Below, piece after piece: positions 22,143-54,037 of a stretch of DNA of 54,158 nt. This DNA comes from a virus (lineage: Duplodnaviria; Caudoviricetes), in IMG/VR virus record IMGVR_UViG_3300022200_000061, positions 1-54,158 of that record; one strand, given 5' to 3'. Both the position numbers and the translations under genes were made by a program. The number at the start of each line of letters is the position of its first letter. Positions within the stretch are counted from its first letter, which is position 1. The notes beneath the pieces are model-generated. The model worked only from the letters and a program-made list of their open reading frames with translations. It was not told where the DNA came from and did not search any database.

Positions 22143-22242
22143 CTAATCACTACGTTTGGCACTTCTCATAATGCAGGTATCTCAACTGTGTTAAGAAGTG
22201 CCAAAGGCGGCGATTAGTGCCGAAAACAGGAAAGGTATTGAT

Positions 22243-22833: not shown

Positions 22834-23671
22834 CATCAACGTCTAACGTTTGATACTTAGGACACACGCAACAGGCTGTTAGACCGGCACACAACACCGG
22901 CTTGATGAGCGTGTGTCTCTATGTGTCAATCATGGCACGAATAGGAGATAATACCATGAATGCTTTTACCGCTCGCAAGGTCACTGAAGGCCGTCGTCTG
23001 TATGAAGCTATGTGCAAGGGCAAGGTTGCCATGCGCGGCATCCACAAGGTTCGTAATGGCCGCAAGTGTGCGCCTATCGTCCCTTCAGGCTTTCCCTATC
23101 ACGGTCACGTGAGCTTCAACTAGTTTTGAAGTGCCGTAACCCGTAATTTCCTGTGAAAGTGTATGACATGATTGGAAAGTATTCTGTGTCTCAATCAGCC
23201 GCACGTGAAAATGCCGATAGGAGTATCTCCGTACATGGCGTCACTCTCCGACTGACCACTGAATTGGTCAATCCGTTTTATATGGCCCGACTACCTCACT
23301 ACAGGTTTGCGACATTCTGGTCCCGGATCAGTAATGAGCGGATCGAGGACAAACCCGTACGTTTTGAAACTGACGGTTTTGAAATCTTCAAACTTGAACG
23401 TGCAGGCCACAGCATTGTTTATGTTGTGTCTTGTTCCATCGAACATGGCGACAAGCTGGTCCTGTCACAAGTTGCCATTCCCAAATTGATTGATCAGCCC
23501 GCTATTGCTGGCTAATAACAAGAGTGTATGACATGCGTACAATCAAGCTCATGATGCGCTATCGTCCAAAGTCCACAATAGGGCTTTTCGGATTGGCTAT
23601 GTTAATACTGGCCATCATCGTGTTCGGACATATGCCATGCACCACCATTCCATATTGTTAGGAGAACAAAC

Positions 23672-23884
23672 ATGGCTAAGGCAAACGAAAAGATGTACGT
23701 CATTGGTGACAAGGACAATTTCACTGATGGGAATGAAGCCGGTATCATTGTCTCAACTGAAGAGAACTTAAGCCAAGCTGTGTCCGATTGGCTTGCCGAA
23801 ACCTTTACATCTGAAGAAGATGTCCTGCTATACGAGGTCGGTCGTAAAGGCATCCTGCCCAAACGTGAAATTCAGTTTGTGTAG
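23672..23884 (+). CDS. Early hypothetical protein
   Basis: AGGAG RBS, acidic 70-aa ORF. Confidence 0.65.
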   Translation: MAKANEKMYVIGDKDNFTDGNEAGIIVSTEENLSQAVSDWLAETFTSEEDVLLYEVGRKGILPKREIQFV

Positions 23885-23948
23885 TTAAGAAGTGCCGATG
23901 ATGTGAATTTGTTATGAAAATTGATGGGGCTTACGAGCCCTGTCTTAT

Positions 23949-24014
23949 GGGTGGGTCGTCTAATTGGTTAGGACAACTCCGGAGATAATGCAGGTTCGAC
24001 TCCTGTCCCACCCT
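23949..24014 (+). tRNA. tRNA-like RNA lacking the anticodon loop (tRNA-Glu-like body)
   Basis: Acceptor GGGTGGG/CCCACCC, D-arm GTCT-AATTGGTTA-GGAC, T-arm GCAGG-TTCGACT-CCTGT; only 15 nt between D- and T-arm; no encoded CCA. Confidence 0.75.
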
Positions 24015-24122
24015 TATAATTGCTTTGTGTGTGTCCCACTATTGTTGTGGACAGTTAAGCTGGCCACTCCTTGGGTCAGTGGGGGCACACTCATGGCAAT
24101 TATGCCCTAATGGAGAAGAAGA

Positions 24123-24302
24123 ATGAAGATCGTTCCCGGTGATACTGTTCGTACGGCTGATGGCAAGGTGTTGGATATCAGTGAGCGTACTCCTGACAAC
24201 TACCTGACCAGCGTTGATCGCATGGGCAATGCTCGTTTGTTCAAGCCCAATGGCCACTATGCTGGTGGTGATCGTGGCAAGAACGCTGTGGAGGTTCTGT
24301 AA
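24123..24302 (+). CDS. Hypothetical protein (59 aa)
   Basis: MKIVPGDTVRTADGK...; RBS GGAG; stop overlaps next ATG. Confidence 0.6.
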   Translation: MKIVPGDTVRTADGKVLDISERTPDNYLTSVDRMGNARLFKPNGHYAGGDRGKNAVEVL

Positions 24303-24685
24303 TGGGTAAGTTTAATATTGGTGACAAGGTTCGGCGCACAAGACACTCTATGGTGTCCGAGAAGAAGTATGGACGAATGGGCGTGGTGTATACAATTGCG
24401 TCCGAGAGAACTGTGGGTATGGGGTACTTAACCGAGTGTGGTATCATAGCCTGTGAAGCTAATTTTGAGTTGGTTGGTCCCCTTGAAGAAGCCAAGGCCA
24501 CTCTCGAAGCTGCTGGCTATATTATCTCACCCCCACTACCAAAACTGACCGACAAGATCGCGATATGGCGTTTCAAATTCAGTAGACGAGACGACTATCA
24601 CGTCACCACATTATCCAAACATATCCCTATGTCCGACAAAGAGCTGATTGCTATTGTCGACTGGACAGAAGGAGATGGGCTATGA
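24302..24685 (+). CDS. Hypothetical protein, paralog of 27693-28103
   Basis: Shared EEA..L...GY....P.P and IA.V.W.EG motifs. Confidence 0.7.
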   Translation: MGKFNIGDKVRRTRHSMVSEKKYGRMGVVYTIASERTVGMGYLTECGIIACEANFELVGPLEEAKATLEAAGYIISPPLPKLTDKIAIWRFKFSRRDDYHVTTLSKHIPMSDKELIAIVDWTEGDGL

Positions 24686-25550
24686 GTTTTGATACAGCAA
24701 ACCTTGTAATGTTCTTTGTCTTCGTCCTTCCAGTCGGTTTGTTTATGTGGATGGGCGTGGCCTACTGGGGCCTCCAAACATATAAAATGTGGAAGAATCG
24801 CTGATGTATTTCATTGTAACGTTCGCCGGGTCCAAGGTGATTGGGCCTTTCACATGTGAGAAAGCCGCTCTCGAATATAAGCGCCAGTACCCTAAGTTTG
24901 CTGGTGTTGTACGAGACGTACAGAAACCATAGGTAATGTCATGCTTGAGAACTCTCTCTACTTCATTGGTGGCGTACTCGTCACTGTAATGTTGTTTCTC
25001 CTGTTCTCCATATACGGTTATGCCGTATGGACTTGGTTCACTTCACAGTTTAGGAGTGCCAAAGCCGAGGATTTCTTGGAAAAACATTTTAAGGATGATC
25101 TGTGATGAAGGTTTATTTAGTGATCACAGCCTATCAAGACGAGTACGAAATTCATGGGGCCTACCTTGATTCAAATCAAGCTTTGGTCCGGCAACAAGCT
25201 GAGCGTCGTAAGTTTCTAGAATACCTTGGCAGCTACAAGCCACGTCGTCTGGACGACATGCTTGAGGCCATCCATATCAAAGAAATGGAAATCAGTGATG
25301 CAAACGAACAGTGATAAGGTGCGTACCTTCCGTAATGAGGATAAGGAACCTCGTTTGGACCGTAAGCGTGACAAGATGAGCCCGAAAGAGCTTCGTAAAC
25401 AGGCAAGACGTGTCAAGCACGTTGGCCGTGATATTGAAGACTGATTGGTATTTGTAGTATCACTCTAACTTCTTCATATTATACTCTTCTAAACTTCGTT
25501 ATCTTCCGATTATCATCGGTATAGAGTATTATATAGATATCATATAGATA

Positions 25551-25592: not shown

Positions 25593-26474
25593 ATGGATGC
25601 AAAAACACTTCGTCGTGTTAGTCCATTGGTTAAGGAATACGCCAAAACCCGGTTCGTTCATGACTATCAAGATAGGAACTCCAACGCTATCAATGCGCGT
25701 GTTTCAATTGGTCTTTCAGGTAAAGCTAAACTTGATCGTGGTGCGCCATATGTATGTTATGGCAATCTGAATCGTACTGTCGATCCTGATACGAAGGCCA
25801 TTCTTCTTCAGATTCAGCCCCGTAAAGAAGCTGTTACTGAAGAGGCATTCCGCCACTACATCCATTGGGTTATTAACCTCTCCCCTTGGCGTCATGCGTT
25901 CATCAGCAAGAACATTGATCGTGTCATGCGTGATGGTGTTGTTGTCGTTGATGCTACATACAAGGGCAACACTGTCTCTGGTGGCATGATTGCACTACGT
26001 CAGGCTTGGGAAAACTACAGTGCAAACTTCCGCCACAAGGGTGTTCAAGCATGGTATGAATTGCTTGGCCAGACTGACCCTGTTGTAGCATTTGCTGCAA
26101 GCTGTTTGTTCTCTTGGGTAAATGACCATGCTGTAATCCCAACGCCAACGTTTGCTGGGCATACCCCTCTCAATCAGGATGGGTCCAACCGCCTTGACTC
26201 GTTTGTTCGTGGTAACATGGTTGATAATTCTGAACCTTGGTGTGTTGGTGCTATCCATCGTCTAGCATCTGGTGCATGGCCACCAGCAACAATGACCCCC
26301 AAATCTTTCGCACCATTCGTTCACAAGCTTGTTGAACAAATTGATAGCAAGAAGACTAGCGCCAACCCTTTTGCTGCAAGAAATGAGACTAAGGTGTATG
26401 AGCGTAACAGGCTTATTACCTTCCTTGCTGAAAACCTCCAGCCTGAATGGGATAAGTTGAATGGCACGGCGTAG
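25593..26474 (+). CDS. Hypothetical protein heading the amidoligase cluster
   Basis: 293-aa ORF with RBS. Confidence 0.75.
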   Translation: MDAKTLRRVSPLVKEYAKTRFVHDYQDRNSNAINARVSIGLSGKAKLDRGAPYVCYGNLNRTVDPDTKAILLQIQPRKEAVTEEAFRHYIHWVINLSPWRHAFISKNIDRVMRDGVVVVDATYKGNTVSGGMIALRQAWENYSANFRHKGVQAWYELLGQTDPVVAFAASCLFSWVNDHAVIPTPTFAGHTPLNQDGSNRLDSFVRGNMVDNSEPWCVGAIHRLASGAWPPATMTPKSFAPFVHKLVEQIDSKKTSANPFAARNETKVYERNRLITFLAENLQPEWDKLNGTA

Positions 26475-27153
26475 TGTTTTAATCAGTAATGGCAGTGGTG
26501 CAGGTGCTGTACGTACAATGTTTATGGAAGAGGGATGGGATATCTGTAGTGATATCGACGATGCTGATTTGGTTCAGTTCGTTGGTGGTGCAGACGTTGA
26601 CCCTGCTCTCTATGGGCATCACAAGCATCGTACTACAACCATTGACGCCAATCGTGACCTCCGTGAACAAGAGCTATACACTATGGCCCTTGATCGTGGT
26701 ATTCCTATGGCTGGTATCTGTCGTGGTGGTCAGTTCCTCAATGTCATGAATGGTGGGCTGCTCTATCAGGATGTTGATGGACATGCTATGGGCACTACAC
26801 ATGAGGCATGGCTTAAGGGCGCGCCCTTGCCTGTCAAGGTAACATCAACCCATCACCAGATGATGGAGCCTAACTACGATGCTGATGTGCGTGTACTGAT
26901 GCAAGCCAAGGCTTCGTCCGTTAAGCGTATGATGTCGAACAAGAAGAATGGCATCTATGAAACCAAGATCGTCATGAAGGATGGGTGTCAGCCCTCTGAT
27001 GTTGAAGCCCTCTACTATCCGGGTACTCGTTGCCTGTGCTTCCAGCCTCATCCAGAGTTTACGGCAGCCTATGCTCGTGAGACTCGTGAGGTGTATTTCG
27101 TCTTTATGGCTGATTACATCACAGGTGATCCGAACGACCACGTTCCATATTGA
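26461..27153 (+). CDS. Class I glutamine amidotransferase-like (peptidase C26 / PuuD-like)
   Basis: GGADVDPALYG, GICRGGQ nucleophile elbow, STHHQ, FQPHPE. Confidence 0.9.
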   Translation: MARRSVLISNGSGAGAVRTMFMEEGWDICSDIDDADLVQFVGGADVDPALYGHHKHRTTTIDANRDLREQELYTMALDRGIPMAGICRGGQFLNVMNGGLLYQDVDGHAMGTTHEAWLKGAPLPVKVTSTHHQMMEPNYDADVRVLMQAKASSVKRMMSNKKNGIYETKIVMKDGCQPSDVEALYYPGTRCLCFQPHPEFTAAYARETREVYFVFMADYITGDPNDHVPY

Positions 27154-27206
27154 GTTATGAAGTGTGGATAGTGGTAATTTTGTGAGAAAATAACGGAGAT
27201 TTTGAA

Positions 27207-27596
27207 ATGAACATGCTGTCTGTATTCCTCCTTCTGTCTGATATCGTGCCACGTCTGGCTATTTTGGGCATTATCTTGATAGTTGCTGCTCTGGCCCTCC
27301 TGTTCGTCCTGCCCAAAAATGATGAGATCGAAATGTTCTCATACGAACATGCCCCGTTTCAGGGGCTAATGAGAAAAGAGCCGTACATTGTGGGTATTAT
27401 TGGTCTCGTCTTGCTCTTCTTCACTCCAAGCAAGGAAGCCTTTCGACTAATTGCTGCCAGTCAGGTTGGCGAACAGATTATTCAGCTTGAAGAGGTGCAG
27501 GAAATTGGTGGTGAGGTTGGTGGACTGGCCAAAGATGCCATTGAACTGCTGCGCCAGCAGGTGAATAACAATCTTCCACAGAAGCCTACTGAATAG
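27207..27596 (+). CDS. Membrane protein
   Basis: Two hydrophobic segments. Confidence 0.65.
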   Translation: MNMLSVFLLLSDIVPRLAILGIILIVAALALLFVLPKNDEIEMFSYEHAPFQGLMRKEPYIVGIIGLVLLFFTPSKEAFRLIAASQVGEQIIQLEEVQEIGGEVGGLAKDAIELLRQQVNNNLPQKPTE

Positions 27597-27692
27597 GTGT
27601 AAGTGTTTTAGGCCATGTTGGGTCATCTGACATAGCTAACCTCTCTCAGCGGCCTTCTCTGTGGCCGCAATCAACCTTCTAGGAGCATATTA

Positions 27693-28103
27693 ATGACTGT
27701 TGATGTAAAAGTTGGCGATGTTGTACTAATTAAAATTGGTGTTGGGTTCAGCCTTAGTGGCAAAGCTGTCTCAATCTCTTCTGTGAACAATGAACACTTC
27801 ACTACACCTGTTGGCACTAGGCTTGGCCACTACAAGTACCCGCTCCATATTATCGAAAAGGTTGTCAAACCTCTTAACCCAACTGAAGAGGCTATCAAGC
27901 ATCTTACATCCCTTGGTTATAAGGTGGAAGAACCAACTCCGCCTCGTGAGGGTATTGGTGTTGTGTATAGTTTTCAGTTAGCTGCTCAAGACAAGGTTGT
28001 GACCGCTATTATGGACCAAAATGCGTGGGGCACCTACTACGAAAAAGATGAAAAGTATACAAAGATTGCCACAGTGAAGTGGGTTGAAGGAGAATACGTC
28101 TAA
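27693..28103 (+). CDS. Hypothetical protein, paralog of 24302-24685
   Basis: AGGAG RBS; shared C-terminal motifs. Confidence 0.7.
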   Translation: MTVDVKVGDVVLIKIGVGFSLSGKAVSISSVNNEHFTTPVGTRLGHYKYPLHIIEKVVKPLNPTEEAIKHLTSLGYKVEEPTPPREGIGVVYSFQLAAQDKVVTAIMDQNAWGTYYEKDEKYTKIATVKWVEGEYV

Positions 28104-29530
28104 TGTGCGGTTTGGTAGGTATGGCGGGTAACATTGTCGATGGGGACAAGAAGGTGTTGAAGCATCTTCTCATCTTCGATGTTCTCCGTGGTGACGATAG
28201 CACTGGTCTTGCTGTTGTCTCTGAAAAAGATGATAGTATCTCTCTTGTCAAGGAAGTGGGGGCTCCCCATAACTTGTTCCGTAAGAGCGAGTTCGATAGC
28301 AAGGGTGTGTACACCAGCCAGCGTGGTAAGGTGTTCATTGGTCACAATCGTGCAGCCACCAAGGGTGCTGTGACTAAGAAGAATGCTCATCCATTCCACC
28401 ATGGCAATGTTGTTGGTGCGCACAATGGCACACTGCGTGGTGCCTTTCGTCTTGAAAACAGCGCCAAGTTTGATGTTGATAGTGAAGCTATCTTCTACAA
28501 CCTCGCGAAGTACACTATCGAATCCACGATGGGTAATGTCGATGGTGCCTATGCACTGACTTGGTACGACAAGGACGACAACAAGGTGTATGTCATTCGT
28601 AACAACGAACGGCCCCTGTACTGGACACGTCGCACTGATTTGGACGTTATTTATTGGGCATCTGAGCCTTGGATGCTTGAGGTTGCTCTTGGTCGTTGCA
28701 GCATCAAGCATGGCGACATCGTAGAGTTTGAAAAGAATACGCTCTACAGCCTTGACGTATCCAACGTTATGCCTAGCACCTTCCGTAAGGTTGAGTGGGT
28801 TGAGAAGAAGAATGTTGAGGGCTATAAGTATAAGCCTGTGGTTCGTCATAACAACCATAACAATGGCTCTCACATCTTTAACAACCCAAGCAATGTCAAT
28901 CAGGGAGGCCGCAGTAATGTCATCCCTTTCTCTCCCACGTCGAACGGTGGCTCGACTCAATCTGCTGGCCGGACGGCGACTGAACTATCTGTCATGAAGC
29001 AGATGGAAGGACAGACAATCCGGTTTCGTCTTTCCGGGGTTAAGGTGGGGGTAAGCAAAAGTCGCTATCTCTCTGCATTTCCTGACAACCCTCTTGCTGA
29101 TTGGGATATTCGCATCTATGGCCACAAGAATAGTTTGTGGGGCAATTGGGTGGATGCAGCTAAGGGCAAGAACCTCTTCTCGGGCAAAATCAAGAAGGTT
29201 GTTGACACGTGGCACTCGGGTGGCAAGCGTGAGACCTACCTCCTTATCGACCTCCGCTCAATTGAGAAACAGGTTGAGACAGAGGTTGAAGAGGAACTCC
29301 CGAAGAGTAACACGGTAAGTGATACTGATTGGTACGAAGGTTTTGGTGGCCGTTTCCTTACTCGTGATGAGTGGGATAACGCTACTAAGGATGGTTGTGC
29401 CAACTGTACAGCCGATGCTGATCCCGACGACCAACTCCTGACATTCTTTAGCCACAATGAACATTTCTGTGGCAAGTGTGCGGATGCTAATACCAAGGCT
29501 GAATCTAACCCACGTTCTAATCTCAACTAA
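28103..29530 (+). CDS. Class II (Ntn) glutamine amidotransferase with C-terminal Zn ribbon
   Basis: MCGLVG N-terminal Cys, RGDDSTG, GHNRAAT, NAHPF, HNGTL, DSE; C-terminal CxxC...CxxC. Confidence 0.9.
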   Translation: MCGLVGMAGNIVDGDKKVLKHLLIFDVLRGDDSTGLAVVSEKDDSISLVKEVGAPHNLFRKSEFDSKGVYTSQRGKVFIGHNRAATKGAVTKKNAHPFHHGNVVGAHNGTLRGAFRLENSAKFDVDSEAIFYNLAKYTIESTMGNVDGAYALTWYDKDDNKVYVIRNNERPLYWTRRTDLDVIYWASEPWMLEVALGRCSIKHGDIVEFEKNTLYSLDVSNVMPSTFRKVEWVEKKNVEGYKYKPVVRHNNHNNGSHIFNNPSNVNQGGRSNVIPFSPTSNGGSTQSAGRTATELSVMKQMEGQTIRFRLSGVKVGVSKSRYLSAFPDNPLADWDIRIYGHKNSLWGNWVDAAKGKNLFSGKIKKVVDTWHSGGKRETYLLIDLRSIEKQVETEVEEELPKSNTVSDTDWYEGFGGRFLTRDEWDNATKDGCANCTADADPDDQLLTFFSHNEHFCGKCADANTKAESNPRSNLN

Positions 29531-29547
29531 ACATTACGGAGTGTTAA

Positions 29548-30633
29548 ATGACTGAATTTCTTATCGGCGCTGATCCAGAATTGTTTGTTCGTGATCGTAA
29601 GGGCGAGCTTGTCTCCGCTCATGGTATGATCCCCGGCACTAAAGCCAATCCCCATCAGGTTGAGGGCGGTGCGGTTCAGGTTGATGGTATGGCTTTGGAG
29701 TTCAATATCAATCCAGCCAGCACCTATCAGGAATGGGAAGCCAACATCACTGGTGTAATGGCCCAGCTTAAGGAAATGATCCCAACGGGCTACACCTTTG
29801 ACTTCTCCCCTGTCGCTGAATTTGGTGCTGACTTCATCAAGACACAGCCTGAAGAGGCTCGTGACCTTGGTTGTGACCCTGATTTTAACCCATACAATAG
29901 TAATCAGCCATTCCCCCGCCCTGATGCCAGCACTTCGTTCCGTACTGCGTCTGGTCATGTCCATATTGGTTGGACAAAAGATCAGTCAATTGATGACCCC
30001 GATCATTGGGAAGCTTGCAGTATGATGGCACGTCAGCTTGACCTTGCCCTTCTTCCTCACTCGTTCATCTGGGATCGGGATACGAAGCGTAGCTCACTTT
30101 ATGGCAAGCCCGGTGCTTTCCGCCCTAAGTCTTATGGTGTTGAGTATCGTTCTCTGTCCAATGTCTGGGTGGACAATGCTGACACTCGCTACATTGTGTA
30201 CCATCGTACACTGAACGCTGCTCAGATGCTGTTGTCTGGTCGTCGTATGTATGACTATGACAGCCATCGTGATCCTGTCATTTATCACAAGAAGGGTGAT
30301 CTCAAGTCTGTGAAGATGTGGTCGGACCATCTGCATGCTGCTTTTGATCGGTATGACCCTGATGGGATTATTCGTGCCAAGATGGCTACCATCTACAATC
30401 AGAACAAAACCCCTGTAAAAAGCTCGATAGTCAAGCCTAAGACTAAGACAAATGATGCGGAGTTTAATCCAGCGCTCCAGTGGAATCTGGCTGTGCGAGA
30501 GGCACGAGAACGTATCCGTGAACGTGCAGCCATTGGTGTCCCCGTAGCTGCTGGCATTGGTCGTGGCCCTCGTCGTCGTGGCGCAGGTCAGATGGCTGTA
30601 CCTGCCGCGATTCTTGATGACGATTTCCTGTAA
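29548..30633 (+). CDS. phiEco32-like COOH-NH2 ligase (type 2)
   Basis: IGADPELF, DGMALEFN, GCDPDFN, GHVHIG, YGVEYRSLSN. Confidence 0.88.
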   Translation: MTEFLIGADPELFVRDRKGELVSAHGMIPGTKANPHQVEGGAVQVDGMALEFNINPASTYQEWEANITGVMAQLKEMIPTGYTFDFSPVAEFGADFIKTQPEEARDLGCDPDFNPYNSNQPFPRPDASTSFRTASGHVHIGWTKDQSIDDPDHWEACSMMARQLDLALLPHSFIWDRDTKRSSLYGKPGAFRPKSYGVEYRSLSNVWVDNADTRYIVYHRTLNAAQMLLSGRRMYDYDSHRDPVIYHKKGDLKSVKMWSDHLHAAFDRYDPDGIIRAKMATIYNQNKTPVKSSIVKPKTKTNDAEFNPALQWNLAVREARERIRERAAIGVPVAAGIGRGPRRRGAGQMAVPAAILDDDFL

Positions 30634-30642
30634 GGAGTAGCT

Positions 30643-31224
30643 ATGAAACACTACGACACTGTAGAGTATGCCCAGTCACGATTGGTTGATACTATCGTAC
30701 GTCTTGGCAACAAGCCAATTTTGGTACGGGCTGTTGGCGGTAATAACCGCAACATCATCGTTCACTACGAAGAGGTGTTGACTACTGTTGGTGGTATGAA
30801 AGAGGTGGCTCTTACTGAGTTGAACCTTGACCCTGTACCACTGGGCTATGTTAACTTCGATGGCCTTGCTCACTACCTTACACGAGCCCCAATGCGTCGT
30901 GACTGGCGGCAGGGCCTTCGTATGCTCAACATTATGGTCCCCAATGGGGGGCAGCCTCGTGCTATCCCCTATCGCACAATCGCCAACACAATCATTGGCA
31001 AGTACCCCACCTTCAACTCAGCTCTTGATAAGCTGAACAAAACCACTAATTCCTCACGGGCATTGGCATTCTGTCGTGACTTTGCTATGACACGAGAGAA
31101 GCTGTGCTATAAGGGCGTCTTTGATGTTGGTAGTGTCAACATGGACAATGGCAACATTGAAATCAATCGCAAGTTCGATTGGGTCCGAGAGGCCCTTGAA
31201 CAGAATATGGAGAAAGCAGCATGA
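30643..31224 (+). CDS. Hypothetical protein of amidoligase cluster
   Basis: Strong RBS; PLGYVN and RDWRQGL; embedded in cluster. Confidence 0.7.
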   Translation: MKHYDTVEYAQSRLVDTIVRLGNKPILVRAVGGNNRNIIVHYEEVLTTVGGMKEVALTELNLDPVPLGYVNFDGLAHYLTRAPMRRDWRQGLRMLNIMVPNGGQPRAIPYRTIANTIIGKYPTFNSALDKLNKTTNSSRALAFCRDFAMTREKLCYKGVFDVGSVNMDNGNIEINRKFDWVREALEQNMEKAA

Positions 31225-32075
31225 AGCCAATGAAGCAAGTCCTACGGTTGGACCCTTCAACATACCGTGATGCCTTGTATGGTGTAGAGATTGAGGTGGA
31301 GGGGAACAACCTCCCCACCCGCCTCAGCAGCTCTGTGTGGCGTATTGAGCGGGATGGCAGCCTCAAGTCTGCGGAAGCCTACGAGTATGTGACACCACAC
31401 CCACTGTCATTGGCAGGTGTACGGTCCTCGTTGGACTATCTTGGTGCTGCTTACGCAACGTCCCGCACTTCTGTTGACGAAAGCATTCGTGCTGGTGTAC
31501 ATGTCCATATGAATGTGCAGGACTGGAACATCAAACAGTTGTTCACCTTCACCACCATGTACTATGTCCTCGAAGACATCCTTACTCGTTGGTGCGGCCC
31601 GGCCCGTGAGGGCAATCTGTTCTGCCTTCGTTCTAAGGACGCTGAGTTTGTTCTGTTCCGTGTCCTTGAGGCATTGAACAACAAGAACCTTCGTCTGTTG
31701 AAGGACGATACCATCCGCTATTCCTCCCTCAACTACTGCTCACTGTTCAAGTATGGCAGTATTGAGTTCCGTGGGATGCGTGGTACAGGTGATCTGGATG
31801 CCATCTACAACTGGGTTCAGATCATTAACGACCTCCGTGAATCGTCTTTGAAGTTTGACGATCCGGTGTCTGTCATCTCCACGATGAGTGGTGATGGTGG
31901 TCGGGCATTCCTCGACCGTGTTCTCCCCAACACTGCCAAGTTGCTTGGGGATGTCAACGACGCTGATGAGTTGATCAGTGAGTCTACCCGTCGTGTTCAG
32001 ATGCTTGCTTTTGGTGTCAACTGGGCATCAATGGGTGGCAAAAGTGTAAACATCTTTAAGGAAGAGGTTTGGTAA
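31221..32075 (+). CDS. Putative amidoligase (COOH-NH2 ligase)
   Basis: YGVEIEVEG, DGSL, GVHVHMN, SIEFR. Confidence 0.88.
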   Translation: MKPMKQVLRLDPSTYRDALYGVEIEVEGNNLPTRLSSSVWRIERDGSLKSAEAYEYVTPHPLSLAGVRSSLDYLGAAYATSRTSVDESIRAGVHVHMNVQDWNIKQLFTFTTMYYVLEDILTRWCGPAREGNLFCLRSKDAEFVLFRVLEALNNKNLRLLKDDTIRYSSLNYCSLFKYGSIEFRGMRGTGDLDAIYNWVQIINDLRESSLKFDDPVSVISTMSGDGGRAFLDRVLPNTAKLLGDVNDADELISESTRRVQMLAFGVNWASMGGKSVNIFKEEVW

Positions 32076-32470
32076 TGACTTATGTATTTGTATATGGTAC
32101 GCTGAAGCAGCGTCATGGTAATCATCGTGTCCTTGGTGACGCTGTGTTTATTGGCGAAGGTGCAACAGTAAGTGATGAGTTCACTATGTTCAACGGAGGT
32201 TTCCCTTTTGTATCCACTGGTTTTGATGAACATCGTGGCCGTGTATTCGGTGAACTTTATGAAACGGATGATGAAGGCATCCTTCGTAACCTCGACCGAC
32301 TTGAAGGCGTCCCTTATCTATACATCAAGAGGGAGGTTGATGTTACGACAGTGGACGGACAGCAGCACCGGGCAACGCTCTACGTGGCGTCGGAAGAGTC
32401 TAACCGTCGAATGAGTCATCGTGAACAGATTGTACCACGTGGCGGTACTAAGATTCTGGAGTGGAATTGA
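32075..32470 (+). CDS. Gamma-glutamylcyclotransferase (AIG2-like)
   Basis: VFVYGTLK, GELY, LDRLEG..Y. Confidence 0.9.
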   Translation: MTYVFVYGTLKQRHGNHRVLGDAVFIGEGATVSDEFTMFNGGFPFVSTGFDEHRGRVFGELYETDDEGILRNLDRLEGVPYLYIKREVDVTTVDGQQHRATLYVASEESNRRMSHREQIVPRGGTKILEWN

Positions 32471-33225
32471 TGCACGTATATTCTTACAATCAGTATAGCG
32501 CAGGTGCTACAGCCCTAGCACGTGCTGCAGGAGCTAAGAAGGTGAAGCATGAGGGTAGCCGTTTTGTTGGCGGGCCTCATAAGACTGTCATCAATTGGGG
32601 CAGTAGCTCTGTACCCCCAGAGGTTGGCCGTTGTCGTGTGATTAACCTGCCTGAGATTATTGGGCGTGTTACAAACAAGCTTACATTCTTTACCAACTTC
32701 AACATCCCTGAGCTTGTCCCTTACACCACCAGTGTTGATCAGGTACGTGAATGGTTGAACGAGGGTAAGACTGTGGTGGCCCGTAAGAAGCTCACAGGGC
32801 ACTCAGGAGAGGGTATTGTCATTCTTGAAGGGACTGATGCCGAAATTGTACCAGCCCCGCTGTACACCCTCTACAAGCCAAAGAAGGATGAGTACCGTAT
32901 CCACGTAGTTCGTACTGCGAATGGGTATCAGGTGTTTGATCGCCAGCGTAAGGCTCGTGATCGTTCTAACGACAATCCTAACTGGAAGGTACGGAATCAT
33001 GAAAACGGTTTTGTATATGCTCGTGATGGCATTGATCCTCCACGATGTGTTGAGGAAAGCGCTATCAAGATTCTTGAAGAGACAGGTCTTGACTTCGGTG
33101 CAGTGGACATCATCTATAACGACAAGGAAAAGAAAGCCTACGTCCTAGAAATCAACACAGCACCGGGCCTTACAGGCACTACACTGGAACGCTATACAGC
33201 TATGGTGAAGGAGAATTTTGAATGA
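32470..33225 (+). CDS. ATP-grasp peptide ligase (RimK/GshB-like)
   Basis: GHSGEGI, EYRIHV, LDFGAVDII, VLEINTAPG. Confidence 0.9.
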   Translation: MHVYSYNQYSAGATALARAAGAKKVKHEGSRFVGGPHKTVINWGSSSVPPEVGRCRVINLPEIIGRVTNKLTFFTNFNIPELVPYTTSVDQVREWLNEGKTVVARKKLTGHSGEGIVILEGTDAEIVPAPLYTLYKPKKDEYRIHVVRTANGYQVFDRQRKARDRSNDNPNWKVRNHENGFVYARDGIDPPRCVEESAIKILEETGLDFGAVDIIYNDKEKKAYVLEINTAPGLTGTTLERYTAMVKENFE

Positions 33226-37162: not shown

Positions 37163-37624
37163 ATGAGTATTGTAGAAACACACTACCGAGAGAGCTACAG
37201 TAAGTTGGTTAAGATTGCCCGTGGACGTGTGGGAGACTACTCCCTACCACTGGCAGAGGAAGCGGTACAGGAGGCGTTTACTAGAGCGCTGAAGTACCTC
37301 CCAGCATATAACCCAAGGGTGCCGTTTGATAAATGGTTTATGAGCATTCTCTATAATGCTATCAACAACATCAAACGTCAGGAAATGGATGCAGGTATGG
37401 TATACGAAGAAGAAGAAGAAGTAAATTACCATAACGCTAATGACATCCTATTCACCAAGGAGATCAGTGATGCACTAAGCCGATGTAGTATTCGTGATCA
37501 GGAAATCCTGAACGCATACTTCTTCTATGGCTTTAAGTCACGAGAGGTAGCCGAGATTACCGGCACGAACCATTCAGTTGTTCGTGATGTGGTTCGGACC
37601 TTTCGCAAGAAGGTGAGAGATTAG
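37163..37624 (+). CDS. Phage RNA polymerase sigma factor (ECF-like)
   Basis: Region 2 AEEAVQEAF...FDKW...N; region 4 HTH GFKSREVAEITG. Confidence 0.85.
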   Translation: MSIVETHYRESYSKLVKIARGRVGDYSLPLAEEAVQEAFTRALKYLPAYNPRVPFDKWFMSILYNAINNIKRQEMDAGMVYEEEEEVNYHNANDILFTKEISDALSRCSIRDQEILNAYFFYGFKSREVAEITGTNHSVVRDVVRTFRKKVRD

Positions 37625-45686: not shown

Positions 45687-46145
45687 ATGAAAATTCAGGG
45701 ATCACCCTGTCCCATATGTAACCGAGCTAGAGAATATGTGTCGGAGGTAAACGCTGCCAAAGGAAAGGGTAAGCCATGTCGATCTTGTGCCAACTCAATT
45801 AAGGGTGGTGGGGTCGGATGGAGTCCTCTTTGTGCAGACTGTGGGATAAGGGCTAAAACAGGTAAACACAACTCGCAGTGTAAAGAGTGCCATAATAAAC
45901 GTAGTAGTAAGTATCACAAAGAAGTTTATCGTTGGGCTAAGTACGGCCTGAATGGGCCAATAGCCATGGCCGAATGTGAAATTTGCAAAGCAGTTGAAGA
46001 CCTAGTTATTGATCATTGCCATGACACACAAGTAGTAAGGGGTGTGCTGTGTCGTACATGCAATATGGCTCTAGGGCTGCTTAAAGAAAATAAAAACAAT
46101 GTAAGGAGTGCCTTAAAATATGCAGAACGAACATTCAACAATTGA
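45687..46145 (+). CDS. Endonuclease VII-family protein (probable free-standing homing endonuclease)
   Basis: CEIC...IDHCH...VRGVLCRTCNMALG plus N-terminal Cys pairs. Confidence 0.8.
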   Translation: MKIQGSPCPICNRAREYVSEVNAAKGKGKPCRSCANSIKGGGVGWSPLCADCGIRAKTGKHNSQCKECHNKRSSKYHKEVYRWAKYGLNGPIAMAECEICKAVEDLVIDHCHDTQVVRGVLCRTCNMALGLLKENKNNVRSALKYAERTFNN

Positions 46146-47235
46146 TTTGCCCAAAGACATTTTGAGTCAGGTCACTATTTTTGGCAAGTATGCCCGACAC
46201 ATCCCATCACTCAACCGTCGTGAGACTTGGGCTGAGATTATTGAACGAAACAAGCTGATGCATCAGCAGAAGTATCCCAACATTGCTGACCTGATTGATG
46301 AGGTATATGATCGCTCGGTACTGACGAAACACATCCTTCCTTCTATGCGGTCCCTACAGTTCGCAGGAGTCCCTATTGAACGTAATCCTTCTCGCATTTA
46401 CAATTGTGCGTATCTCCCTATTGAGGACACTGATGCGTTTGCTGAGATCATGTTTCTACTTCTTGGTGGAACAGGGGTCGGCTATTCTGTACAAGATCGA
46501 CATGTATCGAAACTACCTGTTGTCTGCGGACCTAAGGGCAAGCCACGTCGCTATGTCATCGGAGATTCAATCGAAGGCTGGGCAGATGCTGTTAAAGTTC
46601 TTATTGAAGCATATTTCAATGGCAAGGCCGGAGTAAATTTTGACTATGGAGACATCCGAGAAAAAGGAAGTGAGCTTGTCACCTCAGGAGGCAAAGCTCC
46701 GGGACCAGAACCACTACGAGAATGCCTCAACCGAGTACGAGATGTTCTTGAGGGAAGTATCGGACGGAAACTCAGCCCAATCAATGCTCATGACATCGCT
46801 TGTTATCTCGCTGATGCTGTACTTGCTGGGGGTATCCGTCGGGCTGCTATGATTAGCCTGTTCTCGATTGACGATGAAGAAATGATTGGAGCTAAGAGTA
46901 GTTCGGTTGTATCCAACCTCATAAGTCGAGAGGATGTAGATAATAAAACCATAAAGCTTTGTATCGAACAAGGTGGTATTGTCTATAACGATATTCTTGT
47001 CAAGCGGGCCAAGGAAACAGATAAGTATTGGGACATTGAGCAGTATGAGCGAGACGGAACATTCGGATGGTGGGTCACGAACCCACAGCGATCACGAGCT
47101 AATAACAGCGTTGTCCTCCTACGAGGGCACGTCAGTGAGGGACGTTTTAAAGAGCTTTGGGACCGAGTTCGAGCTTCGGGTGCGGGTGAGCCGGGGTTCT
47201 ACTGGACGAACAATCTCGATTGGGGCACTAACCCT
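46120..47235 (+). CDS. nrdJ: Class II (AdoCbl-dependent, monomeric-type) ribonucleotide reductase, exon 1
   Basis: RRETW, LPSMRSLQF, YNCAY, GGIRRAAMI, GEPG; ends ...WGTNP. Confidence 0.9.
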
Positions 47236-47313
47236 GGTTTCTAAACAGGGGTTATAAAACGAATTGAATTCAGGGGATATCCAGAACGGACAATCCTGAG
47301 CTAAGCTTTTATT

Positions 47314-47341
47314 CTCACAAACAGGTGATTTCTAAGGTATA
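47314..47341 (+). promoter_or_regulatory. Intron-internal phage-sigma promoter for the HNH gene
   Basis: CTCACAAACA-N12-GGTATA 31 nt before the HNH ATG. Confidence 0.72.
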
Positions 47342-47372
47342 TGTATGTAGGGACTAACCAACAGGAGCTACA

Positions 47373-47702
47373 ATGAATACCTATAACTACGAAATTAACG
47401 AAGACGGGTCTATTATATCCAAGCACACTGGCAATCAAATCTATGTGGCTACGTGCAAGAAGGGGTATAGCAGAGTGAGGTTGAAACATGCTGATGGTGG
47501 TAAGCCACACTTGGTGCATAGGCTTATTGCCTTAAAGTTTATACCTAATCCCGACAACCTTCCTCAAGTTAATCACAAAGACGGTAACAAAAGTAATAAC
47601 CGCGCTGATAACTTAGAGTGGGTGACTAATAAACGTAACTGCGAACATGCTGTAGCCAACGGGCTTTATCATGTCACCAGAAAAGCGTGTGAGAATAATT
47701 GA
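47373..47702 (+). CDS. Intron-encoded HNH homing endonuclease
   Basis: VHRLIA..FIPNP...VNHKDGNKSNN...NLEW; AGGAG RBS. Confidence 0.9.
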   Translation: MNTYNYEINEDGSIISKHTGNQIYVATCKKGYSRVRLKHADGGKPHLVHRLIALKFIPNPDNLPQVNHKDGNKSNNRADNLEWVTNKRNCEHAVANGLYHVTRKACENN

Positions 47703-47868
47703 AAGTGCAACGACTATCCCGAAAGGGAGTAGGATCAAGTGATCCGAAGCGGTTCGCTCGGCATAGCCGATGATGATATAGTCTGATCTGCATAGGAATA
47801 TGCAGCAGCTTCGTAACTAACAGGGCAACGAAGCGGGGTAAGTTTAACGAACTTATCTGAACACCATG

Positions 47869-48798
47869 TGTTGTGAAATCGCACTCAAGCCCTACCAATT
47901 CTGTAACCTTACTGAAATCAATACCTCTAACATCGTTGATCAGGATGACTTTAACCAACGAGCCAGCGATGCAGCATTCCTTGGCACTCTTCAAGCAGGG
48001 TACACAAACTTCCACTACTTGCGTTCTATCTGGAAGCGAACGACTGAAGAGGATGCTCTTGTCGGTGTCGGACTAACAGGTATTGCCTCTAACGCCATTA
48101 AGGAACTTGATGAGCTTGAGGCTGCTGATAAGGCCATGATGACTAACCGTCTGGTCGCATCTATGATTGGAGTTAATGTTGCCTCACGAGTTCTTACAGT
48201 TAAGCCAAGTGGAACAAGTTCTCTGGTGGTTGGCAGTAGTAGCGGTATTCATGCTTGGCATGATGATTACTATGTCCGCCGTATGCGGTTCAACAAAGAT
48301 GAAGCGATCTTTAAGTATCTCGCCCGAACAATCCCAGCTCTGGTTGAGGATGAACACTTCAACCCCGAAAAGATGGGCGTGGTTGGTATCCCACAGGCAG
48401 CTCCTAAAGGTGCTACGGTTCGTACAGAGTCTGCTCTGGATTTGTTGGAACGCACTCGTCGCTACAATGTTAATTGGGTGGGGGCTGGTCATCGCTCTGG
48501 TGATAACCGAAACAACGTCTCTGTAACCGTGTCCCTAAAGGACAATGAATGGGGTGAAGTCGGTCAGTGGATGTGGGACAATAAGGATACCTACAATGGT
48601 ATCAGCGTTCTTCCATATGATGGTGGCTCATACATTCAGGCCCCGTTTGAAACTATCACTGAGGAACAGTACAACGAGATGGTAAAGCATCTTACAGCTA
48701 TTGACCTTACCAAAGTTAATGAGGTACATGATGAGACAAACCTTGCCGCTGAAGCAGCCTGCGCTGGCGGAGCTTGTGAGATTGGCGATTTTGTATGA
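47869..48798 (+). CDS. nrdJ: Class II ribonucleotide reductase, exon 2
   Basis: CCEI, QFCNL, VKPSGTSS, C-terminal ACAGGACEI; spliced product 681 aa. Confidence 0.9.
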   Translation, partial: CCEIALKPYQFCNLTEINTSNIVDQDDFNQRASDAAFLGTLQAGYTNFHYLRSIWKRTTEEDALVGVGLTGIASNAIKELDELEAADKAMMTNRLVASMIGVNVASRVLTVKPSGTSSLVVGSSSGIHAWHDDYYVRRMRFNKDEAIFKYLARTIPALVEDEHFNPEKMGVVGIPQAAPKGATVRTESALDLLERTRRYNVNWVGAGHRSGDNRNNVSVTVSLKDNEWGEVGQWMWDNKDTYNGISVLPYDGGSYIQAPFETITEEQYNEMVKHLTAIDLTKVNEVHDETNLAAEAACAGGACEIGDFV

Positions 48799-53028: not shown

Positions 53029-53640
53029 CTAGGCTGCTTCGCTTTGGTCGTCAACCACAATCAGGTTATCAACATCAGTGAATTCCACCGGTGTTTCTCG
53101 CCCATTGTCGCCAAGCACTACAGCCTTAACCGTACCCTTCTTGGTCACAGACAGGATGCGGGCAAGGACGCGCTGGTCTGCCGTCATTGGCGCCGTGATA
53201 TGACGCCCGACCTGCATTGAGCCGAGCTTGGCCCGACGCTCAGCCTGGCGCACATTTGGCCGCCCCTTGCGCAGTTCAGTCCGAACCGAGCGAGTGTTGC
53301 CATCCTCGTATGCCATAGAACGCTCAGCGCGCATGATTGAGGCCACTTTCTCCCTCGCGAGGGTATAGGGCCGCCCATCGACGTAAAGCACGCCCTTAAC
53401 CCCGTTGCACTGGCGGAGCGCATACCAGTTTTCAGGGCCAGCAAAGCGCATGAAAATGTACCCGGTCAAAAGCGGGCGGCGCGTGATGATTGGTTCCTTG
53501 GTCCGGTGGTGGGTCCGCACCTTCGCCAGCCGTGGCATATGAGCCCGAAAGCCGTGGCGCCGGATTTCCGCAACCGCCTTGCGCTCGCAGTTTGGGTTTG
53601 TCTGTACGATGTACCAATGGTTTTGCGTTTGCCCGTTCAT
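53029..53640 (-). CDS. NusG-family transcription antitermination protein (phage-type paralog)
   Basis: NGN domain WYIVQTNPNCERK...PLLTGYIF...GVKGVL; KOW-like C-terminus. Confidence 0.8.
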   Translation of the reverse strand: MNGQTQNHWYIVQTNPNCERKAVAEIRRHGFRAHMPRLAKVRTHHRTKEPIITRRPLLTGYIFMRFAGPENWYALRQCNGVKGVLYVDGRPYTLAREKVASIMRAERSMAYEDGNTRSVRTELRKGRPNVRQAERRAKLGSMQVGRHITAPMTADQRVLARILSVTKKGTVKAVVLGDNGRETPVEFTDVDNLIVVDDQSEAA

Positions 53641-53665
53641 AGTAGCCCCTATGGTTGGAAATGGA

Positions 53666-54037
53666 TTAGGCGGAATGCTTCTTCTTGAGAACTCGTGCCT
53701 CGCCCATGCCAAGGCGGCGCTGGACTTCTTCGACAGAGATTTTCGCGTTTGCGTCCCGCACCGACTGAATGCGCTTTCCCTCAAAGTCTGGCAGCGGCAC
53801 CGGAAAATTACAGACCCACTCCCCGAACAAGCCGATAGCGCGCATGGCTATGAACGGCAGAAGGATCAGAAACACCGGCGTGTAAAACCAGATGCCGACC
53901 ATCAGCCAAAAGGCATTCCGGTTTATCTCGCCCGCTATCTCTGGGCAGGCATGGGCAATTCGGATGTTGCGAATGTAGGTTCTGCGGATCACGATAAACC
54001 GCCAAGGGATGCCGTCAGTTAGCCAGTGCCAGCTCAT
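53666..54037 (-). CDS. Hypothetical membrane protein
   Basis: RBS and hydrophobic segment. Confidence 0.5.
   Translation of the reverse strand: MSWHWLTDGIPWRFIVIRRTYIRNIRIAHACPEIAGEINRNAFWLMVGIWFYTPVFLILLPFIAMRAIGLFGEWVCNFPVPLPDFEGKRIQSVRDANAKISVEEVQRRLGMGEARVLKKKHSA

Follow-up and report, generated by a model that had tools for sequence, protein, structure and literature searches.

A tRNA-like body without an anticodon loop, set between two hairpins in the early operon of a freshwater phage genome

The window, meaning the whole stretch of DNA that was analysed, is a complete virus record of 54,158 nt from freshwater metagenomes. Inside its early operon, a 238-nt intergenic region between two co-directional open reading frames (ORFs) holds three RNA modules that fold independently, namely a tRNA-like body and the two hairpins on either side of it (Table 1). 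The upstream ORF matches no Pfam or PHROG family, and a site scan revealed nothing promoter-like from 23885 to 24122.

Table 1. Features of the locus, in window coordinates, with example arm-less bodies from other viral contigs
Feature	Position	Strand	Description and basis
Upstream 70-aa ORF	23672..23884	+	same early operon; ORF list
Upstream hairpin	23923..23944	+	9 bp, UACG loop, ends 4 nt before the 5' end of the body
tRNA-Glu-type body	23949..24014	+	RF00005 match; acceptor stem, D arm and T arm; without anticodon loop
Anticodon-stem remnant	23976..23985	+	stem halves abut, zero loop; alignment and pair list
Downstream hairpin	24015..24104	+	90 nt, imperfect, first base directly after the discriminator
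GGAG ribosome-binding site	24112-24115	+	sequence
59-aa ORF	24123-24302	+	after the downstream hairpin; ORF list
Example arm-less bodies	L101:535-594, L106:5316-5379, L139:1432-1499		IMG/VR scan

The body is the sole Rfam match in the 54,158-nt window. The model RF00005 aligns with it on the plus strand over its full length (1-71) at 45 bits, where the gathering score is 29, with an E-value of 2.1e-6 for the whole window. Read from the sequence, the acceptor stem has 7/7 Watson-Crick pairs, the D stem 4/4 pairs with one G-U, and the T stem 5/5 pairs, again with one G-U; GG is present in the D loop, and the T loop is TTCGACT. Pair 3-70 is G3-C70, the discriminator at 24014 and the base at -1 are both U, and CCA is not encoded. 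At the anticodon loop the RF00005 alignment counts seven positions in the model ([7]) and none in the sequence ([0]), and the spacing from D stem to T stem is 15 nt, as compared to 22-23 in tRNA. An earlier reading of the letters, referred to below as the sequence-only reading, had described intact acceptor, D and T arms, an anticodon arm without its 7-nt loop and 15 nt between the D and T arms; the alignment, the reading of the stems and the count all agree with this description. It had also expected tRNA finders to report a pseudogene or no anticodon, and ARAGORN called 0 tRNA and 0 tmRNA genes in the whole window. The body passes the RF00005 threshold and has the acceptor, D and T arms of a canonical decoding tRNA, but not the 5-bp anticodon stem and 7-nt loop with an anticodon. 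Because the loop is absent and ARAGORN returns nothing, the body is not classed as a tRNA.

The two hairpins were likewise part of the sequence-only reading, and both fold better than all of 200 shuffled versions. The upstream hairpin has a folding energy of -13.5 kcal/mol (z -4.3), and the downstream hairpin one of -40.3 kcal/mol (z -3.8), with 0/200 shuffles as stable in either case. Only one inverted repeat in the window is longer than the downstream hairpin (I2), whose end is separated from the GGAG site by 7 nt. The strongest hairpin of the genome lies elsewhere in the same early operon, at 22143-22217 (-40.6 kcal/mol, z -7.0), between a 72-aa ORF and a 211-aa gene whose first possible GTG start it spans. 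Its role could be to be cut by RNase III or to stabilise the message, as is considered below for the hairpin that follows the body.

Downstream of the operon slot, the genome carries an amidoligase cluster of the phiEco32 type (26461-33225), which is common to the phages CW02, PA11 and G001. It encodes a class I amidotransferase (Peptidase_C26), a 475-aa class II amidotransferase, a COOH-NH2 ligase type 2, an Amidoligase_2 protein, a gamma-glutamyl cyclotransferase and an ATP-grasp protein; in the window, 3.4 kb of extra genes separate the cluster from the tRNA slot. Several other genes were noted. A 191-aa protein encoded at 34204-34779 matches RNA_ligase (PF09414, E 7e-13) and PHROG 548, "RNA ligase", over positions 2-225 of 341; by these matches it is a short adenylyltransferase of the Rnl2 type, and no equivalent was noticed in the CW02 annotation. 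The ribonucleotide reductase at 46120-48798 is in two pieces (374 aa and 310 aa), split by an HNH_3 endonuclease ORF at 47373-47702, which looks like an intron or the insertion of a free-standing homing endonuclease. The phage also encodes its own sigma-70-like factor at 37163-37624 (+) and, at 53029-53784 (-), a NusG-like protein (PF02357, E 4e-16; PHROG "transcription antiterminator").

The kinship of the phage can be placed by its terminase, which is 71% identical to that of CW02 (a Salinivibrio phage), 70% to that of PA11 (a Pseudomonas phage) and 80% to that of G001, the closest long relative. On this evidence the window phage belongs with the Zobellviridae-like podoviruses. CW02 has a normal tRNA-Arg(UCU) in the same place of the early operon, preceded by the 211-aa gene and by two small genes, and G001 has a normal tRNA-Arg(UCU) (67.4 bits) in the same slot, just 5' of the homologue of the 127-aa gene and of the amidoligase cluster. 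Both of these tRNA-Arg genes encode CCA. The early region of PA11 holds an unannotated, odd-shaped Arg(UCU)-like gene. The slot is therefore one that normally holds a working tRNA within the message, and in the window it holds a non-decoding body of Glu type. Since real tRNA-Arg(UCU) genes fill it in CW02 and G001, tRNA-type processing of the transcript would be ancestral. A proposed likeness of the downstream hairpin to the spacer upstream of the CW02 tRNA was given up, as blastn did not support it; the spacers of CW02 and G001 fold no better than shuffles, except for one CW02 segment with a z of -2.05.

The gene in PA11 (L011, NC_007808.1) is unusual in its own right. It is an 80-nt tRNA-like gene at 47672-47751, scoring 38.7 bits, with a UCU anticodon loop, a D arm that is almost absent and a variable region enlarged by 20 inserted nt, among which are D-arm-like letters. 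It has a G3:U70 pair and overlaps the end of an HNH endonuclease gene, and a weaker match of 54 nt lies at 47136-47189.

The assignment to Glu comes from a metagenome contig, L098, on which tRNA-Arg(UCU), tRNA-Phe and a normal tRNA-Glu(CUC) stand together in an array of phage style. Over 20 nt, the body matches the D arm of the L098 tRNA-Glu(CUC) letter for letter, and the two share their T loop; the 7-nt anticodon loop and one base of the variable region are missing from the body. By its letters, then, the body is of tRNA-Glu type, and the element is best read as a phage tRNA-Glu gene minus that loop and that base, a form that cannot decode. Set beside the ordinary phage tRNAs of L098, CW02 and G001, it shares its D arm with the Glu gene and its operon slot with the Arg genes, and it differs in having no anticodon loop, a variable region one base shorter and no encoded CCA.

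Independent assemblies bear on whether the missing loop is real. Logan contigs of three sequencing runs carry the region without any difference, and one of them, from run X3 (another sample and another study), covers 23328-25100 with 0 differences and 0 gaps, although such contig comparison speaks for presence only, as rare variants would drop out. None of the listed runs holding this DNA is an RNA-type record. A diverged version is present in run X5, a marine metagenome of 2024, whose contig aligns with 23946-24315 at about 95% identity, with 15 differences and 0 gaps. Because the alignment runs gap-free across the body, the X5 relative is also without the loop, and given the identity of X3 as well, the loop-less form is not an assembly error. 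The loop deletion of the sequence-only reading has thus been recovered in other data, and its description of the body as a non-decoding tRNA mimic holds, with the same form preserved both by a separate assembly and by a relative that has diverged. The loop-less state is older than the split from X5, from which the adjacent gene differs at 6/52 third codon positions.

The substitutions that separate the window from X5 are few. Differences are listed only where they lie more than about 35 nt from the ends of an aligned piece, such that the visible part of the body is 23982-24014, and three of the 15, at one or other piece end, are unlisted. The 70-aa ORF is about 8% divergent, with changes at all codon positions. 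The 59-aa ORF has 6 listed differences, all at third positions (6/52, with 0/105 at first and second positions), and this restriction identifies it as a real gene under purifying selection. Neutral divergence from X5 would be about 10% by these counts. In the visible body 3/33 positions are changed. One change, 23984 G>T, breaks a pair of the anticodon-stem stub, which for this reason does not look constrained; another turns a G-U of the T stem into G-C, and the third is in the discriminator. None of the visible changes disrupts the acceptor or the T arm. The downstream hairpin has 3 differences in 90 nt, of which one turns G-U into G-C, one turns C-G into U-G and one breaks the second pair of the stem. 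Body and hairpin together (6/123) do not differ significantly from the third positions (6/52; one-sided Fisher p 0.105), and the visible body by itself, at 3/33, is no slower than the adjacent third codon positions. This pattern is compatible with constrained arms and an unconstrained stub, with too few changes to set it apart from a young relic. Upstream, 23897-23945 is swapped in X5 for 87 other letters, with homology restarting 3 nt before the 5' end of the body, a replacement that takes in the upstream hairpin.

Searches among relatives place the element outside the common inheritance of the family. No stub occurs at any of the 80 loci that flank the terminase in relatives (L012-L091), and for this reason the stub is not a family trait. 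Related loci were sought through the neighbouring 127-aa, 120-aa and 59-aa proteins, with none found in IMG/VR; the DNA of 23400-24700 matched nothing in 50,697 phage records; and blastn of the intergenic region against 91 loci returned only the self match. Seven distant loci reached through the class II amidotransferase have 2 normal tRNAs and no stub. The sequence-only reading had looked to relatives for the same loop-less form with compensatory changes. X5 supplies the loop-less form, and among the relatives searched none beyond this one, at about 95% identity, has the element. In the contig of one distant relative, a group I intron (RF00028, 62.7 bits) at L006:13848-14390 has an insertion of 333 nt.

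Bodies of the same architecture do occur in unrelated viruses. A Glu-type pattern, consisting of Glu-type arms with a shortened middle, found in IMG/VR one other, unrelated viral contig, L009 (119,863 nt), with two aberrant tRNA-like genes about 500 nt apart (1057-1124 and 485-552). One is a Glu-like stub of 68 nt (41.3 bits), with a hairpin of -23.9 kcal/mol that ends 3 nt upstream, and the second has a 5-nt anticodon loop (34.8 bits) and is called by ARAGORN as Phe, 68 nt. Scans for Glu-type stubs found only a normal tRNA-Glu, that of L098, in metagenomes, and in species genomes they gave 0 and then 2 irrelevant matches, a tRNA 3' fragment and a chance match. A 60-nt stretch on a Halorubrum sp. 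F4 scaffold (L099:2667-2726, minus strand), with a tRNA-like T arm, a D-arm-like hairpin and 6/7 acceptor-type pairs, may be due to chance.

A broader scan of IMG/VR asked for a common D arm followed by 12-20 free bases and the T-loop motif, with no acceptor stem demanded, and returned 101 stretches, of which 80 were retrieved (L101-L180). That a single pattern finds so many indicates that the loop-less body is not a one-off. Sixty-nine of the 80 are arm-less bodies of 59-67 nt with at least 6/7 acceptor pairs and 5/5 T-stem pairs, for which the chance expectation is about 1% by our own arithmetic. The linker from D to T arm is 9-17 nt (counts by length 21, 12, 10, 9, 10, 2, 2, 2 and 12), and as the counts peak at the minimum length of the pattern, forms with shorter linkers may exist. 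Members with a 17-nt linker have a small stub hairpin, like the window body. The 69 stubs fall into 34 clusters at 85% similarity, and 52/69 have no ARAGORN tRNA within 1 kb. Among 40 representatives, the elbow (the GG of the D loop, and the T loop) and the acceptor stem are kept, and two-sided changes are seen at all 7 acceptor pairs and 3/5 T pairs. Their covariation score is 0.80, as compared to 0.15 for shuffles and about 0.1 for slid partners; the percentage of paired cells is inflated by the acceptor and T filter, and the pattern itself dictates the D stem and two of the T pairs. Covariation of the acceptor stem across 34 clusters shows that the arm-less class is selected.

The surroundings of these stubs have one feature in common with the window. 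A stable hairpin ends at most 7 nt upstream of 25/56 distinct stubs, as compared to 288/1500 random positions (Fisher p 2e-5) and 52/189 normal tRNAs (p 0.02), p-values that are generous in that the stub sequences are related and their independence is overstated. Directly after the 3' end, hairpins are not enriched (10/56 stubs, 443/1500 random). No flanking protein family is common to more than 2 stub clusters, and this want of a recurring partner fits an element served by host enzymes. The window body has the architecture of the class, with its 7-bp acceptor stem, D and T arms and a linker of 15 nt (within the 17 nt of the class), and also the upstream hairpin (-13.5 kcal/mol, 4 nt away). 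It is set apart by the Glu type of its D arm and by its downstream hairpin; the likeness is one of architecture and not proven kinship. A covariance model of the stub class, R1, gives the body 19.9 bits (E 5.6e-4) and scores normal tRNAs with a matching D arm higher; as it ranks normal tRNAs above stubs, R1 was dropped as a test of membership.

Quite possibly, and this is the explanation that we favour tentatively, the body serves as a non-decoding "t-element", at which RNase P and RNase Z cut the early message. The parts that it retains are those used by end-processing enzymes, and neither RNase P nor RNase Z nor the CCA-adding enzyme needs an anticodon arm. Within the early operon, the body would have been retained as a module for RNA processing. 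Host RNase P would cut at 23948/23949 and leave the upstream message with the upstream hairpin and a 4-nt tail as its 3' end, which may have a protective role. RNase Z, or RNase BN, would cut after the discriminator at 24014, a site predicted from the fact that CCA is not encoded. The message of the 59-aa gene would then start exactly with the paired hairpin, followed by the ribosome-binding site, and this hairpin may stabilise the downstream message at its 5' end or be cut by RNase III. A paired 5' end slows 5'-end-dependent decay, and a hairpin-ended layout protects bacterial messages. The excised RNA of about 66 nt would probably be CCA-tailed and then degraded, or have no further role; the genome has no phage-encoded CCA-adding enzyme (PF01743). 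In all of this the body would act like a plant mitochondrial t-element.

The sequence-only reading had proposed three roles, and of these an RNase P/Z processing signal is the best anatomical fit, with the cuts themselves as predictions. It is favoured because the body lies within a co-directional operon, with one hairpin ending 4 nt upstream of it and another starting directly after its discriminator. Some observations count against processing as the role: the upstream-hairpin half of the layout is replaced in X5, the only relative with the element is about 95% identical, the visible body has changed no more slowly than the third codon positions beside it, spread in the family is absent, and the class has no downstream hairpin.

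An unlikely alternative to the processing role is that the body is a neutral relic, a tRNA-Glu that lost its loop by one deletion and is otherwise undecayed, maybe still excised but not selected. The substitutions would suit such a history, in that the visible body rate (3/33) is near that of third positions (6/52), the combined test is not significant and one change in X5 breaks a remaining pair of the stub. The element is absent from relatives beyond the one at about 95%, and the phage is without any decoding tRNA, which implies that tRNA genes are dispensable for it. Against this, each of the 16 pairs in the acceptor, D and T stems still forms, and none is broken by a visible change. The sequence-only reading had held that random decay would not be expected to spare every other arm, a reasonable argument that stays unproven here because the substitutions in X5 are too few. 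The loss, moreover, corresponds exactly to the loop and leaves the stem halves abutting, which is rare for a random deletion, and hairpins lie flush at both ends of the body. The architecture also recurs in 34 viral clusters with covarying acceptors, a class that neutral decay cannot yield.

Equally doubtful is a role in trans, in which the excised and CCA-tailed body would act as a decoy, or as a sponge, for some host factor that recognises tRNA by its acceptor end and elbow. A toxin of host defence that alters the 3' ends of tRNA is an example of such a target, for which a body of this kind would leave decoding undisturbed. An RNA without an anticodon loop is a poor mimic for the anticodon nucleases, which are the best-known tRNA-directed defences. 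The elbow and acceptor stem are fully kept, here and across the 40 representative stubs; 52/69 stubs are solitary by the ARAGORN count; and a target encoded by the host would leave no partner protein to recur, as is seen. The Rnl2-type RNA ligase of the phage hints at tRNA conflict. However, the present analyses point to no target, the body was found to have no promoter or terminator of its own and gives no sign of high expression, and the discriminator differs between the two known variants, those of the window and of X5. Broader and rather less probable still is the proposal that the arm-less bodies as a whole are a widespread class of phage small RNAs which act in trans on host proteins that read the acceptor or elbow, with the window body as one member. 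Such RNAs would go unseen by the ribosome and by anticodon nucleases, and would sponge or misdirect, for example, toxins that modify 3' ends.

It is very improbable that the body is an aminoacyl carrier, charged for instance with glutamate, that feeds the amidoligase, amidotransferase and ATP-grasp cluster; the sequence-only reading had proposed an aminoacyl carrier for the downstream ligase cluster. The body is of Glu type and lies 2.4 kb upstream of the cluster. However, glutamyl-tRNA synthetase reads the anticodon, and the ligase families of the cluster are ATP-dependent and are not known to use aminoacyl-tRNA. CW02, PA11 and G001 share the cluster but have a normal or Arg-type tRNA in the slot, with tRNA-Arg(UCU) in cluster-bearing relatives, and plant t-elements are CCA-tailed and base-modified but not aminoacylated (bioRxiv 10.1101/2024.09.09.612099). 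An assembly error or an attP leftover has next to no probability: three runs are identical, one of them from another sample and study, and X5 is gap-free, while an attachment-site fragment of a tRNA fails as a candidate because both tRNA halves are present, not just the 3' part, and the genome, that of a T7-like lytic type of phage, has no Phage_integrase match.

The recurrent class is of more interest than the window locus, which is itself of moderate interest. tRNA finders skip arm-less bodies, and phage annotations miss them as a result. If the bodies are cutting marks, phages use organelle-type tRNA punctuation to shape the ends and stability of their messages, and such elements would predict transcript boundaries straight from sequence. 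Action in trans would instead make them counter-defence RNAs of a new kind. In either case, the arm-less set is a ready collection of minimal RNAs, drawn from nature, that could serve RNase P, RNase Z and the CCA-adding enzyme as substrates.

Several known RNAs resemble the body in part. The tRNA-like domain of tmRNA is likewise the top half of a tRNA and does not decode, but it lacks a D stem and has G3:U70 as its alanine mark, whereas the body has a full D arm and G3-C70; with no tmRNA called by ARAGORN, this identity was ruled out. The mascRNA of MALAT1, the tRNA-like RNAs of gammaherpesvirus 68 and the bacterial YrlA Y RNAs are tRNA mimics with a reduced or re-routed anticodon arm, which are cut by tRNA-processing enzymes or mimic the elbow and do not decode. 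The first two are eukaryotic, and YrlA is circularly permuted and Ro-bound, unlike the window body, for which tRNA is the only Rfam match. Phage genes for a tRNA without an anticodon arm are not described in the literature searched, which was mostly that outside subscription journals and supplements. The "anticodon-less tRNA" of PMC13434031 is the cleavage product of a defence nuclease and not a gene.

The closest parallel is with the t-elements of plant mitochondria. These are tRNA-derived, with a non-canonical cloverleaf and a conserved T arm, and lie within messages (PMC1920247); at their borders, RNase P and RNase Z generate the termini of mRNAs (Forner et al. 2007, PMC1920247); and they acquire a CCA tail and base modifications but no amino acid (bioRxiv 10.1101/2024.09.09.612099). 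The phage body is likewise tRNA-derived and non-decoding, with its T arm kept and its place in the message between genes. The t-elements differ in being organellar and in having mapped cleavage, whereas the phage body is known from its letters; it is also cleaner, being reduced by the anticodon loop only, and hairpins abut both of its ends. It has, in short, the tRNA-derived cloverleaf, T arm and intergenic position within a message that define a t-element, but it lies in a complete virus record and not in a plant mitochondrial genome. The body would therefore work like a t-element without being a member of that family.
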